Virus record (IMG/VR): IMGVR_UViG_2700989428_000001 | Direction: 5' to 3' (one strand) | DNA from: a virus | Taxonomy: Duplodnaviria > Heunggongvirae > Uroviricota > Caudoviricetes | Length of the DNA stretch: 11,666 nucleotides | In this document: in pieces, positions 2,048-6,160 of the stretch | Numbering within the stretch: position 1 is the first letter of the stretch | How the letters are laid out: each line of letters begins with the position of its first letter | Notes under the pieces: model-generated | Database searches by the model: none | The model's input: the letters and a program-made list of their open reading frames with translations, nothing else | What the model was told of the DNA's origin: nothing | Translations under genes and position numbers: made by a program

Positions 2048-4344
2048 ATGAAAGTATTAATTGTTGAAAGCGAGTTTCTCCATCAAGACACCTGGGTCGG
2101 TAACGCCGTTGAGCGTCTGGCAGATGCTTTAAGCCAGCAAAATGTTACCGTGATTAAATCCACCTCCTTTGATGATGGTTTTGCCATTCTCTCTTCAAAC
2201 GAAGCCATTGACTGCCTGATGTTCAGCTATCAAATGGAACATCCGGACGAACATCAAAACGTCAGACAATTGATCGGTAAGCTTCATGAGCGCCAACAAA
2301 ACGTGCCGGTCTTCCTGTTGGGCGATCGGGAAAAAGCCCTCGCCGCAATGGACCGGGATCTGCTGGAGCTTGTCGATGAATTCGCCTGGATTCTGGAAGA
2401 TACCGCCGACTTTATCGCCGGACGCGCCGTTGCCGCGATGACCCGCTACCGCCAGCAGCTATTGCCGCCACTGTTCAGCGCGCTGATGAAATATAGCGAC
2501 ATCCATGAATATTCCTGGGCAGCGCCAGGCCACCAGGGCGGCGTTGGTTTTACCAAAACACCCGCCGGACGTTTCTACCATGACTATTATGGTGAAAATC
2601 TGTTCCGCACCGACATGGGTATCGAACGCACTTCCCTCGGTTCTTTGCTTGACCATACTGGCGCATTTGGCGAAAGCGAAAGATATGCCGCACGCGTATT
2701 TGGTGCCGATCGCTCCTGGTCGGTAGTCGTCGGTACTTCCGGCTCTAACCGCACCATCATGCAGGCTTGCATGACCGATAACGATGTAGTGGTCGTTGAC
2801 CGTAACTGCCATAAATCCATCGAACAAGGCTTGATGCTGACAGGCGCGAAACCGGTCTACATGGTGCCAAGCCGCGCTACAAGGTCTACATGGTGCCAAG
2901 CCGCAACCGCTACGGCATTATCGGGCCAATCTATCCGCAGGAAATGCAACCTGAAACCTTGCAGAAGAAAATCAATGAAAGCCCGCTGACCAAAGACAAA
3001 GCCGGGCAAAAACCGTCTTACTGCGTGGTGACCAACTGCACCTATGACGGCGTGTGTTATAACGCTAAAGAAGCACAGGATCTGCTGGAAAAAACCTCCG
3101 ATCGTCTGCACTTTGACGAAGCCTGGTACGGCTATGCACGTTTCAACCCGATCTATGCCGATCACTATGCCATGCGCGGCGAACCTGGCGATCACAACGG
3201 TCCTACCGTTTTCGCCACCCACTCCACCCACAAACTGCTGAATGCGCTGTCACAGGCCTCTTATATTCATGTACGTGAAGGTCGTGGGGCGATTAACTTC
3301 TCCCGCTTCAACCAGGCCTACATGATGCATGCCACCACCTCCCCGCTGTATGCCATCTGCGCATCCAACGACGTGGCGGTGTCGATGATGGACGGCAACA
3401 GCGGCCTGTCACTGACCCAGGAAGTGATCGACGAAGCGGTTGATTTCCGTCAGGCGATGGCGCGGCTATATAAAGAGTTCACCGCTGACGGTAGCTGGTT
3501 CTTCAAACCGTGGAACAAAGAAGTCGTCACCGACCCACAAACCGGCAAAACCTATGACTTTGCTGACGCACCAACCAAACTGCTGACCACCGTTCAGGAC
3601 TGCTGGGTCATGCATCCGGGCGAAAGCTGGCACGGCTTCAAAGATATTCCGGATAACTGGAGTATGCTCGACCCGATTAAAGTCAGCATCCTTGCTCCGG
3701 GAATGGGTGAAGATGGTGAACTGGAAGAAACCGGTGTTCCGGCGGCGCTGGTCACAGCCTGGCTTGGTCGCCACGGCATTGTGCCTACCCGTACCACTGA
3801 CTTCCAGATTATGTTCCTGTTCTCTATGGGCGTGACCCGTGGGAAATGGGGGACTCTGGTTAACACCCTTTGCTCCTTCAAACGCCACTATGATGCCAAC
3901 ACACCGCTGGCGCAGGTGATGCCGGAACTTGTTGAACAATATCCTGACACTTACGCGAACATGGGGATTCACGATCTGGGTGACACCATGTTTGCCTGGC
4001 TGAAAGAAAACAACCCTGGCGCACGGTTGAATGAAGCCTATTCCGGCCTACCGGTGGCGGAAATCACCCCGCGTGAAGCGTACAACGCGATTGTCGACAA
4101 CAATGTCGAACTGGTATCCATTGAAAATCTGCCAGGACGTATCGCGGCAAACTCAGTTATCCCGTATCCGCCAGGAATCCCGATGCTGCTGTCTGGTGAA
4201 AACTTCGGCGATAAAAACAGTCCGCAAGTAAGTTATTTACGCTCGCTGCAATCCTGGGACCATCATTTCCCTGGATTTGAACACGAAACAGAAGGGACAG
4301 AAATTATTGACGGTATTTACCACGTTATGTGTGTGAAAGCGTAA
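2048..4344 (+). pseudogene. adiA: biodegradative arginine decarboxylase, frameshifted by a 29-bp insertion at 2876-2904
   Basis: ORF 2045-2989 encodes the N-terminal ~277 residues (MKVLIVESEFLHQDTWVGNAVERL...LTGAKPVYMVPSR) and then runs out of frame into a stop. ORF 2890-4344 in another frame resumes MVPSRNRYGIIGPIYPQEMQ... through the C-terminus ...IIDGIYHVMCVKA. Removing 29 bp restores one 755-codon frame (2297 - 29 = 2268 nt = 756 codons including stop). Confidence 0.85.
2854..2904 (+). repeat. imperfect tandem duplication: 22-bp unit ggtctacatggtgccaagccgc twice (2854-2875, 2883-2904) separated by 7-bp filler gctacaa
   Basis: Read directly from the sequence. The period is 29 bp, not a multiple of 3. 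The filler resembles the downstream native cgctac, suggesting a templated or slippage-type event. Confidence 0.85.
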
Positions 4345-4360
4345 CCACTATTCCGCTGAA

Positions 4361-4387
4361 GGCGTAATTGTTAAATAACATTACGCC
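4361..4387 (+). other. imperfect hairpin just 3' of the adiA stop
   Basis: ggcgtaattgtta / taacattacgcc arms form a ~12-bp stem with one bulge. No U-tract follows, so it is a structured 3'-UTR element rather than a clear terminator. Confidence 0.3.
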
Positions 4388-4461
4388 GCCTGGCTTGAGG
4401 CCTTTTAAGTATGGCAACGTTTTCATAAAAATTGCTGCAAACAAAAAATGTCATGCTTTTT

Positions 4462-4488
4462 GCGCGGTCCCACCCCGCGCTTTTTTTT
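4462..4488 (+). terminator. rho-independent terminator downstream of adiA
   Basis: GC stem gcgcgg (4462-4467) / ccgcgc (4475-4480) with 7-nt loop tcccacc, followed by T8 (4481-4488). Confidence 0.6.
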
Positions 4489-4560
4489 GCCTGTTATTTA
4501 TCCTTTTTTGCCTGTTATTTATCCTTTTTTTAGCCTGTTATTTATCCTTTTTTTAGCCTG
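4489..4560. repeat. tandem repeat array, about 3.3 copies of a 21-23-bp unit gcctgttatttatcc(t)6-7(a)
   Basis: Copies at 4489-4509, 4510-4532 and 4533-4555, plus a partial copy gcctg at 4556-4560. It starts immediately after the terminator T-tract. Confidence 0.8.
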
Positions 4561-4563
4561 TAA

Positions 4564-4632
4564 AAAAATATGTACATGAGAAATTACTATAAAAATTTGT
4601 ACATGAGAAATTACTATATAAAAATTTGTAAT
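4564..4632. repeat. tandem repeat, about 2.4 copies of a 27-28-bp unit aaaaat(a/t)tgtacatgagaaattactat(a)
   Basis: The 20-nt core tgtacatgagaaattactat is identical at 4571-4590 and 4598-4617 (period 27). A third partial copy taaaaatttgta follows at 4619-4630. It lies in the adiY upstream region. Confidence 0.75.
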
Positions 4633-4752
4633 ATTAGTAAAACTCGTTATTTTTATGCATGTTTATATTCATCATACAATTATATAACCATTTCCCGGTA
4701 TCGCTTCGCTTTAGCGAGAACTGGTCTTTTATTCGCACTCAGGAGTACATGT

Positions 4753-5514
4753 ATGAGGATTTGCAGCGACCAACCTTGTATTGTTTTATTGACTGAAAAA
4801 GATGTCTGGATAAGGGTGAATGGGAAAGAACCTATTAGCCTTAAAGCTAACCACATGGCGTTATTAAATTGTGAAAATAATATTATCGACGTCTCCTCTC
4901 TTAATAACACTTTGGTTGCTCATATTAGTCACGACATCATCAAAGATTACCTCCGGTTTCTGAATAAAGATCTCTCGCAAATACCAGTATGGCAACGTAG
5001 CGCTACGCCCATCCTCACCCTTCCATGCCTGACGCCAGACGTCTTTCGCGTTGCCGCGCAGCATAGCATGATGCCCGCTGAAACTGAGTCAGAAAAGGAA
5101 CGAACACGTGCATTATTATTCACTGTGCTATCCCGTTTTCTCGACAGTAAAAAATTCCTTTCACTAATGATGTATATGTTACGTAATTGTGTAAGTGACA
5201 GCGTTTATCAAATTATTGAAAGCGATATCCACAAAGACTGGAATCTTAGTATGGTAGCCAGTTGTTTATGTCTTAGCCCAAGTCTGTTAAAGAAAAAGCT
5301 GAAAAGCGAAAACACCAGTTATAGCCAAATAATCACCACCTGCCGCATGCGTTATGCCGTAAATGAATTAATGATGGACGGTAAAAATATCTCTCAGGTA
5401 TCACAGTCCTGCGGCTACAACAGTACGTCGTACTTTATTTCTGTCTTTAAAGACTTCTACGGTATGACGCCGCTGCATTATGTTAGTCAGCACAGAGAAC
5501 GCACTGTCGCCTGA
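4753..5514 (+). CDS. adiY: AraC-family transcriptional regulator of the adi system
   Basis: 253 codons beginning MRICSDQPCIVLLTEKDVWIRVNGKEPISLKANHM..., with AGGAG 7 nt upstream of the ATG at 4753 and a C-terminal AraC-type HTH. The six-frame ORF from 4570 is an in-frame 5' extension through the repeat region and is not the real start. Confidence 0.88.
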   Translation: MRICSDQPCIVLLTEKDVWIRVNGKEPISLKANHMALLNCENNIIDVSSLNNTLVAHISHDIIKDYLRFLNKDLSQIPVWQRSATPILTLPCLTPDVFRVAAQHSMMPAETESEKERTRALLFTVLSRFLDSKKFLSLMMYMLRNCVSDSVYQIIESDIHKDWNLSMVASCLCLSPSLLKKKLKSENTSYSQIITTCRMRYAVNELMMDGKNISQVSQSCGYNSTSYFISVFKDFYGMTPLHYVSQHRERTVA

Positions 5515-5650
5515 TTTTTAACCTTAACGAAGAGCTATATTAATAACGGCATCAGCGATAACCCGGCCGATAATAATTCAACTATCGAATGCAGGCGTAT
5601 GATATGACGTAATTTATTGTCACGAAGCTCGCCTTCGCAGGAGTTTAATT

Positions 5651-6160
5651 ATGTCTTCGGATGCTGATGCTCACAAAGTGGGCTTAATCCCCGTCACCCT
5701 GATGGTGTCGGGGAATATTATGGGGTCAGGTGTTTTTCTGTTACCTGCAAACCTGGCCTCCACTGGCGGGATTGCTATTTATGGATGGTTGGTGACGATT
5801 ATCGGTGCGCTGGGGCTCTCGATGGTATACGCCAAAATGTCGTTCCTCGACCCAAGTCCTGGTGGTTCTTACGCTTACGCCCGCCGCTGCTTTGGCCCGT
5901 TTCTCGGTTATCAAACCAACGTCCTCTACTGGCTGGCCTGCTGGATCGGCAATATCGCCATGGTGGTCATTGGCGTAGGATATTTAAGTTACTTCTTCCC
6001 GATTCTGAAAGATCCATTGGTATTAACCATCACCTGCGTCGTGGTGCTGTGGATCTTCGTCCTGCTGAACATTGTCGGTCCGAAAATGATCACCCGCGTA
6101 CAGGCCGTTGCTACCGTGCTGGCGCTGATCCCCATCGTCGGGATTGCCGTATTTGATTAG
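5651..6160 (+). pseudogene. adiC: arginine:agmatine antiporter, truncated: native sequence for codons 1-168 (to nt 6155), then foreign DNA supplies D-stop
   Basis: Translation [40 protein letters not shown]...[11 protein letters not shown] matches the AdiC N-terminus (APC transporter family). Native AdiC is about 445 aa and continues GWFWF... after this point, whereas here the sequence switches to attagacttgag... with a TAG at 6158-6160. Confidence 0.85.

Follow-up and report, generated by a model that had tools for sequence, protein, structure and literature searches.

The arginine-dependent acid resistance system has been described previously (PMC12826058). The Escherichia coli Adi/AR3 locus lies between melR and eptA, and the window analysed here, which is the whole stretch of 11,666 nt, shares with it the melR-adiA-adiY-adiC-eptA synteny and an identical AdiY protein; it differs from the known locus in that adiC is split by a 37-kb prophage and in that adiA, as deposited, carries a 29-bp insertion, which is probably artefactual. 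Insertional inactivation by phage Mu, in which near-random transposition into a host gene creates a null allele and duplicates a short piece of the target, resembles what is found in adiC, and the duplications made by Mu are 5 bp long. The early genes of Mu read away from the left end, whereas the phage in the window, a BcepMu-type element with an inverted early region, makes duplications of 6 bp. Termini of the form 5'-TG...CA-3' have been described as a hallmark of rve-transposase prophages related to BcepMu (PMC2628397). Bcepmuvirus phages such as PhiKM and the corresponding prophages have 99-100% nucleotide identity over 5.5 kb and the same gene set in common with the phage in the window, and Bcepmuvirus-type prophages also share with it the TG...CA termini, the 6-bp target duplication and insertion sites that vary from genome to genome. 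Compared with other BcepMu-like prophages, the insertion site at adiC codon 168 is the sole particularity of this clone. The smaller anomalies of the window resemble errors of draft short-read assemblies at repeat boundaries, both being private, imperfect, clustered between repeats and accompanied by remnants of a repeat terminus, although this likeness is one of pattern only.

The window is identical to AOQB01000082.1, a contig of the draft assembly GCA_000397225.1, and comprises all of it. Its source is a phylogroup-B2-like E. coli; in a comparison with complete genomes the DNA shows 99.7% identity with E. coli of the B2 type and the adi genes stand in the same order. The clone has at least four draft assemblies in NCBI (AOQB, AOQN, AOQO and that of contig L013) and about seven SRA runs, and among the sister contigs, L004 is a 40-kb contig that is seen in three samples. 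The features of the window are collected in Table 1, in which melA is cut off by the contig end. No tRNA genes were found in the window, and an Rfam search of it returned no family at or above the gathering score.

Table 1. Features of the window, numbered from its first nucleotide
Feature	Position	Strand	Remarks
melA (alpha-galactosidase), 5' part	1..651	-	Gene call; syntenic with annotated E. coli genomes, 99.7% identical
melR as deposited	935..1849	+	304 aa, unique variant; product on record in this contig only
Garbled IS4 right inverted repeat in melR	1501..1518	+	CCAAACTGATCGGCATTA versus true CCTTAACTGATCGGCATTA; replaces 12 nt of melR
adiA (biodegradative arginine decarboxylase)	2048..4344	+	Split as deposited into 2045/2048-2989 and 2890/2944-4344
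29-bp insertion breaking adiA	2876..2904	+	GCTACAA and second exact 22-mer; probably assembly artefact
adiA-adiY spacer repeat T(n)GCCTGT..TATTTATCC	4480..4553	+	Three imperfect copies versus one in the reference, +44 nt; probably artefact
adiA-adiY spacer 27-nt unit TGTACATGAGAAATTAC...	4561..4630	+	Duplicated with 2 extra bases, +29 nt; probably artefact
adiY (AraC-type activator), intact	4753..5514	+	Pfam HTH_18/HTH_AraC; translation match
adiC 5' fragment	5651..6160	+	Native residues 1-168, then Asp and TAG stop from phage end
CGTATT, left copy of 6-bp target-site duplication	6148..6153	.	Same hexamer at right junction of L028 and L029
BcepMu-like transposable prophage, left 5.5 kb	6154..11666	-	First bases 5'-TGATTAGACTTGAGATAAATG; early genes leftward, towards adiC
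Mor-family late-transcription activator	6317..6706	-	PF08765; annotation
GemA/gp16-like protein	6678..7127	-	PF06252
Mu Gam-like host-nuclease inhibitor	9329..9859	-	PF07352
MuB-like AAA+ transposition ATPase (annotated ExeA family)	10159..11325	-	PF13401 AAA_22; annotation
rve-domain transposase, C-terminal part	11336..11665	-	L004 gene 11234-13003, PF00665 rve

We show here that adiC is genuinely interrupted by a BcepMu-like transposable prophage; both phage junctions and the target duplication were observed directly, the left junction in the window contig and the right one in sister assemblies. The initial annotation had read adiC as truncated by phage DNA, and this reading is borne out by a switch of homology at 6154-6155, homology to adiC ending at 6155 and that to Mu-like prophages beginning at 6154. 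Residues 1-168 are identical to those of native AdiC (445 aa; PDB 3lrb and others), after which the foreign DNA provides an Asp and a TAG stop, so that of the full-length antiporter with its 12 transmembrane helices only these 168 residues precede the phage end. The remaining 3' part of adiC lies beyond the prophage in sister assemblies, next to eptA. The right junction, which was located via a 267-aa AdiC C-terminal product, reads ...GCGCATCA, CGTATT, TGGCTGG and continues from adiC codon 169 onward (sister assemblies L028 and L029). As predicted, it was found verbatim in AOQO01000013.1 and AOQN01000005.1, where eptA-basRS comes next; a gapped-pattern search for it in IMG/VR gave no match. 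Because CGTATT stands at the left end and again at the right junction of the sister assemblies, the two copies represent one 6-bp target-site duplication. The identical 169-aa truncated AdiC is present in 11 contigs, among them about seven Logan read re-assemblies, and is on record in NCBI, Logan and ENA. Logan re-assemblies of SRR653724, SRR653737, SRR653739 and SRR653745 match the window across the adiC-phage junction, and Logan contig L009 is 100% identical to the window through it. None of the complete genomes in the collection has a prophage inserted at this adiC site. These data indicate that a BcepMu-like (Mu-type) prophage of about 37 kb entered adiC by transposition behind codon 168, with duplication of its target CGTATT. 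The part of the gene left on the 5' side encodes 168 native residues, comprising about the first five of the twelve transmembrane helices, and has its stop in the phage end.

The phage segment is 100% identical over 5,511 nt to prophages of other E. coli genomes and 99.1% identical to Escherichia phage PhiKM (PQ738613.1), which belongs to the genus Bcepmuvirus, and at least 80% of it is present in 619 complete E. coli genomes, the best of which are 100% identical. Among the matches listed, the homologues begin at window positions 6150-6154, most of them at 6154. The TG at 6154-6155 is the left terminus of the prophage, and ...CATCA is its right end in L028, L029 and genome H32. The copy in H32 ends in ...CA, is flanked by the 6-bp duplication GTCACC and lies within a lambdoid NlpC/P60 tail gene, which it interrupts. 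Insertion at unrelated sites from one genome to another, short flanking target duplications and 5'-TG...CA-3' termini are what is expected of a Mu-type prophage related to BcepMu, and precomputed Pfam hits identify the corresponding early genes, namely a DDE (rve) transposase, which has 589 aa in sister contig L004, an AAA+ partner, Gam, GemA and Mor. The presence of the Mor gene beside the junction suggested that the junction might lie inside the phage as the result of a deletion or rearrangement; this was rejected because BcepMu-type early genes read towards the left end and the homologous prophages listed end at the same base. An integrase-type prophage at a tRNA attachment site was also considered and was dropped, as the window lacks tRNA genes and the matches are Mu-like.

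As the initial annotation had reported, adiY is an intact ORF of 253 codons with a good ribosome-binding site, being identical to the reference WP_001217059.1 and preceded by AGGAG 7 nt upstream of its ATG. It had likewise described adiA as frameshifted, which is correct for the deposited sequence, in which a 29-bp insertion splits the gene into two ORFs of 314/313 aa and 484/466 aa. The insertion creates an exact 22-bp direct repeat, GGTCTACATGGTGCCAAGCCGC, at 2854-2875 and 2883-2904, and between the two copies there are 7 non-templated bases that match neither flank; it is not an exact head-to-tail repeat of a contiguous reference segment. The independent sister assemblies L004 and L013 do not reproduce it. 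In both, adiA is intact (755 aa), the adiC::phage junction is the same and there are no SNPs across the locus, and the uninterrupted sister AdiA matches PDB 2vyc over residues 1-755. Of the 5,409 complete E. coli genomes with a match to the adiA segment, not one has the duplication. The N-terminal product of the called gene, which starts at 2045 (314 aa), is on record in one NCBI contig, this one, and not in Logan, while the fragment taken from 2048 (313 aa) gave no record in the product look-up. The 466-aa C-terminal fragment was tried as a lineage marker and set aside, since it also occurs in four unrelated contigs with other adiA lesions and an intact adiC.

Four further private scrambles are present in the same contig beside the adiA insertion, and wherever the window departs from its sisters, the change is a local indel or duplication. 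The small assembly-specific anomalies of the window contig include an additional A at 858. Another of these changes is in melR, which encodes a normal 302-aa protein in L004. A complete IS4 has 18-bp terminal inverted repeats and a target duplication of 11-13 bp; the window holds a garbled 18-nt right terminus and no IS body. In strain 7CC, a complete IS4 is located at exactly the same melR site with a 13-bp target duplication, CAGCCAGATGCTG, and the first 20 nt of sister contig L013 belong to the IS4 end, after which come the same melR bases. That the scramble derives from IS4 is thus shown directly, and it is probably the footprint of an IS4 insertion that was collapsed by the assembler. An adapter or linker and a variant melR allele were rejected as explanations in view of the match to the IS4 terminus; being a noisy copy of this terminal repeat, the melR sequence therefore cannot be a clean biological allele. 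In the adiA-adiY spacer, the triplication at 4480-4553 is not seen in L004, L013 or the Logan contigs L007 and L008, nor is the duplication at 4561-4630 in these same four contigs; L006 starts at 4601, inside the second spacer copy, and is informative only for the 2 extra bases near 4615, which it lacks. Neither spacer duplication occurs in any of 5,393 complete genomes. The duplicate copies are imperfect, with 7 non-templated bases and T8/T6/T7A variants, unlike a fresh tandem duplication. The sister assemblies have irregularities of their own: L013 carries tandem duplications of 21, 23 and 14 nt inside adiC, and L004 and L013 both have a mosaic consensus at the junction, neither of which is seen in the window or the Logan contigs. 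The 304-aa MelR and the 128-aa AdiC of L013 are each on record in just one NCBI contig, with no occurrence in Logan. The anomalies of the window contig probably come from consensus building by the assembler over a short stretch between two repeats, the IS4 in melR and the prophage.

How much of this is real has to be judged separately for the two adi genes. In a draft assembly so prone to errors, and with a junction consensus in L004 and L013 that contains bases from an uninterrupted adiC, it might be argued that adiC is intact in the strain and that its join to the phage is chimeric. However, the join coincides exactly with the TG terminus of the phage, two sister assemblies contain the reciprocal right junction together with its 6-bp target duplication, and about seven read re-assemblies reproduce the left junction, and we therefore attach next to no weight to this explanation. 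Only slightly more credible, and still very improbable, is the idea that the small duplications in the adi-mel segment of the sister assemblies are real and reflect a local mutational process at the left end of an active Mu-like prophage, which could be the repair of an abortive strand transfer or a replication restart at the Mu-like end. The distribution of the anomalies would fit such a process, as all those of the three assemblies fall in chromosomal DNA no more than 5.3 kb from the phage left end, and the 5.5 kb of phage and 3.8 kb of right flank that were examined are free of them. The anomalies vary, however, from assembly to assembly, and four independent Logan re-assemblies of the clone show none of them where they overlap; the mosaic consensus and the garbled IS4 end also suggest consensus building rather than mutation. 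We know of no duplication-prone process of this kind.

The alternative that deserves more attention is that the insertion in adiA really exists in this one isolate as a private mutation of very recent date, acquired as secondary decay after the adiC knock-out; the two-lesion picture of the initial annotation would then be correct for this isolate. The insertion is, after all, present in the deposited sequence, and once adiC is lost adiA has no role left in AR3, so that selection on it is relaxed and a second lesion would come as no surprise. Other lineages have a split adiA, nonsense alleles of adiC or both, as in L021, where a split adiA occurs together with adiC W170*. In addition, the retrieved Logan contigs start at 3717 or later, and while they bear on the spacer duplications and the junction they do not reach position 2876. 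Against this, a real mutation would mean that five complex indels had arisen independently within 3.8 kb while the 11.6 kb had gained no SNP relative to the sister isolates, one of the five is demonstrably a mis-assembled IS4 end, and errors of the same class are found in the sister assemblies at other sites; moreover, the repeat is imperfect and the product is found in one contig only. We consider a private mutation unlikely. As the insertion is private to one contig, absent from two sisters of the same clone and accompanied by four other scrambles, it is most likely an assembly artefact. The explanation that accounts best for the whole is one real adi lesion, the prophage in adiC, together with a probably artefactual adiA insertion, and we hold it with good confidence.

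It had been proposed in the initial annotation that two independent lesions in one pathway point to relaxed selection or pathway decay, as in host-restricted enteric lineages. This proposal loses its basis with an adiA lesion that is private to one draft contig and absent in two sisters, and the comparison with host-restricted lineages finds no support here either, the nearest relatives being ordinary E. coli of the B2 type whose adi loci are intact. An assembly error at either lesion had been named beforehand as grounds for giving the proposal up, and for adiA a comparison at the level of assemblies points to just such an error. Comparing the adi locus within the clone, as had also been suggested, separates the two lesions: the adiC::phage junction recurs in sister assemblies, and the adiA insertion does so in neither L004 nor L013. 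What remains is most likely a single insertion mutation of an ordinary kind rather than a pathway in decay.

Both the adi system and the phage are already known and hold nothing new in themselves, and the practical consequences of the finding are modest. It does call for caution, in that pseudogenes in old draft assemblies are poor evidence for pathway decay; the window contig is an example, its second 'lesion' being best read as an assembly error and a collapsed IS4 insertion being probably hidden in its melR gene. Judging from the gene content, arginine-dependent acid resistance is expected to be lost in a strain with this adiC allele, because the AdiC antiporter is an obligatory half of the system. 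The loss predicted in the initial annotation thus still stands as an expectation from the adiC allele alone, although its two-lesion basis is not supported. Without the arginine/agmatine exchanger, the decarboxylase would have neither substrate supply nor product export, and resistance would be lost whatever the state of adiA. The clone, with a Mu-like prophage in its adiC gene, is therefore probably one that does not have arginine-dependent extreme acid resistance.

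The window (11,666 bases) matches contig AOQB01000082.1 of the NCBI draft assembly GCA_000397225.1 base for base and from end to end. Positions 1-6155 are matched at 99.7% identity by the melA-melR-adiA-adiY-adiC region of B2-type Escherichia coli chromosomes, and positions 6154-11664 at 99-100% identity by a prophage found in 619 of 5,426 complete E. coli genomes, as well as at 99.1% by Escherichia phage PhiKM (genus Bcepmuvirus); none of the complete E. coli genomes searched has the two halves joined. The deposited sequence bears out the initial annotation in describing adiA as split, adiC as cut and adiY as intact, the last with an exact match to a known protein and a good ribosome-binding site (AGGAG, 7 nt 5' of the start).

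Features of the window (coordinates in nucleotides)
Feature	Position	Strand	Remark
Extra A	858		single base relative to L004
melR replacement	1501-1518		12 nt replaced by 18 nt
adiA	2048-4344	+	split into an ORF ending at 2989 and an ORF starting at 2890/2944
adiA insertion	2876-2904	+	29 bp, from alignment to reference
Near-repeat expansion	4480-4553		+44 nt, native near-repeat
Spacer duplication	4561-4630		29 nt
adiY	4753-5514	+	protein identical to WP_001217059.1
adiC 5' fragment	5651-6160	+	native residues 1-168 of the 445-aa antiporter (PDB 3lrb, 5j4i and others), then Asp and TAG stop
Target-site duplication, left copy	6148-6153		CGTATT, 6 bp
Phage DNA	from 6154	genes leftward (-)	begins 5'-TGATTAGACTTGAGATAAATG

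We show here that the phage entered adiC by simple transposition, duplicating 6 bp of the target and deleting nothing; both junctions and the duplication were recovered, which confirms that the gene is cut by phage DNA. The homologous prophages listed start to match at window 6150-6154, mostly at 6154, regardless of the neighbouring DNA. According to Pfam and annotation, the phage genes encode Mor, GemA, Gam, a MuB-like AAA+ ATPase and an rve-domain transposase, all directed leftward, so that the phage shares with BcepMu an early operon directed at the left end. TG...CA termini are described as typical of BcepMu-related prophages that have rve transposases (PMC2628397). In another genome, H32, the copy of this phage (37.4 kb; L002 12001 to L012 20434) terminates in ...GCGCATCA, with a 6-bp duplication, GTCACC, on either side. 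It lies within the NlpC/P60 tail gene of a lambdoid prophage, a prophage-in-prophage arrangement that adjoins an Avs2 defence gene. Based on the phage features, the right junction was predicted beforehand as ...GCGCATCA + CGTATT + TGGCTGGTTC..., and exactly this sequence was found in two sister assemblies (AOQO01000013.1 and AOQN01000005.1), where a Gin-like invertase gene is followed by the phage right end, adiC from codon 169 onward, eptA and basRS. The Logan re-assemblies of SRR653724, SRR653737, SRR653739 and SRR653745 agree with the window across the adiC-phage junction, and the 169-aa AdiC product is present on 11 contigs and recorded in NCBI, Logan and ENA.

In the adiA insertion, the 7 bases GCTACAA precede an exact repeat of the 22-mer GGTCTACATGGTGCCAAGCCGC, which first occurs at 2854-2875. 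Two sister contigs, L004 (40 kb, three samples) and L013 (an NCBI draft contig found via IMG/VR), share the adiC-phage junction with the window and have no SNPs relative to it, and both encode an uninterrupted AdiA of 755 aa. It has been proposed that two independent lesions point to pathway decay; with adiA intact in both sisters, this is not supported for this strain. Of 5,409 complete genomes matching this adiA segment, not one contains the 29-bp duplication. The 314-aa AdiA and 304-aa MelR of the window and a 128-aa AdiC of L013 each occur in one NCBI contig and in no Logan contig. On the chromosomal side, the window and L004 differ only by local indels (five sites); the stretch concerned is short and bounded by two repeats, IS4 and the prophage.

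We consider it likely that the adiA lesion is an assembly artefact and absent from the organism. That the insertion is instead a genuine private mutation is improbable, although the read-level evidence bears on this less closely than on the neighbouring sites: the retrieved Logan contigs all begin at 3717 or later, 3' of position 2876, and hence refute the spacer duplications directly and the adiA insertion only by analogy. Against a mutation stand five private complex indels in 3.8 kb, compared with zero private SNPs in 11.6 kb, numbers that suit error-prone consensus building far better. Furthermore, the duplicated copies in the window are imperfect and therefore unlike a fresh tandem duplication.

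For melR, mis-assembly can be demonstrated: the replacement, CCAAACTGATCGGCATTA, reproduces the right inverted repeat of IS4, CCTTAACTGATCGGCATTA, with errors, and L013 opens with 20 nt of the IS4 end, from which it runs into the same melR bases. 7CC, an unrelated strain (95.7-98.7% identical), has a complete IS4 at exactly this site with a 13-bp target duplication (L014 4590-6020). It is thus very likely that the isolate carries IS4 in melR and that the assembler bridged the repeat to connect its two flanks, with a mosaic remnant as the result; the clone is probably melR::IS4. A 197-aa MelR cut by IS4 was found in 63 contigs, Shigella boydii among them, and melR appears to hold an IS4 insertion hot spot. 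The extra A lengthens a run of A in the region of the divergent melA-melR promoters; no sister or reference sequence has it.

The duplications at 4480-4553 and 4561-4630, in the adiA-adiY spacer, were found in none of 5,393 complete genomes. They start right after the adiA terminator hairpin GCGCGGTCCCACCCCGCGC and its T-run (window 4461-4630), in the adiA 3'UTR/adiY upstream region, and if real could affect adiY expression; for Salmonella, a preprint reports an sRNA from the adiA 3'UTR (10.1101/2025.06.06.658255). L013 has 21-, 23- and 14-nt tandem duplications within the adiC 5' fragment, and both L004 and L013 have a mosaic consensus just inside the phage end with uninterrupted-adiC bases (CTGGTTCCG..TGAAA) intermixed; neither is present in the window or in the four Logan contigs. 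The mosaic affects the first ~25 nt of the phage end (L004 6054-6075; L013, reverse strand, about 4626-4634; both the counterpart of window 6163-6176), and suggests either that those libraries contained reads of intact adiC, from a mixed culture or from contamination between samples, or that reads of the right junction were mis-recruited. The Logan contigs L006-L009, from the sister runs, reach only 1.5-3.4 kb in single-copy DNA, with breaks within adiA at 3717 and 4116; this is a hint that read depth was low or uneven in these 2013 libraries, which would suit the poor consensus of the deposited assemblies.

The window shows an ordinary adi locus into which a transposable phage of a known type has inserted; Mu was named for such insertional mutation. 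The earlier interpretation stands in that adiC is truly phage-interrupted, but a double lesion with pathway decay is unsupported in this strain. Elsewhere, adiC nonsense alleles W170* or W172* are present in several unrelated read sets of other lineages (L021-L027, Logan and NCBI contigs), and other adiA frameshifts occur in unrelated contigs. Among the nonsense-allele sequences, L021 (SRR13992753) also has adiA split into two ORFs, which makes it a candidate case of two genuine lesions, as the initial annotation envisaged. IS1 lies within the melR-adiC interval in two complete B2-type genomes, H1 (NZ_CP082776.1) and H22 (NZ_CP135643.1), so mobile-element insertions at the mel-adi locus are not rare.

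In PMC12826058, the Adi system is described as requiring both AdiA, for proton-consuming decarboxylation, and AdiC, for arginine/agmatine exchange, with AdiY as its activator. A second copy of adiC may exist outside this one contig, although the window, including the adi locus, has a median of one matching place per complete genome. As over half of the transporter is missing from the 168-residue AdiC fragment, arginine-dependent acid resistance should, judging from the sequence, be absent from the clone, regardless of the state of adiA.
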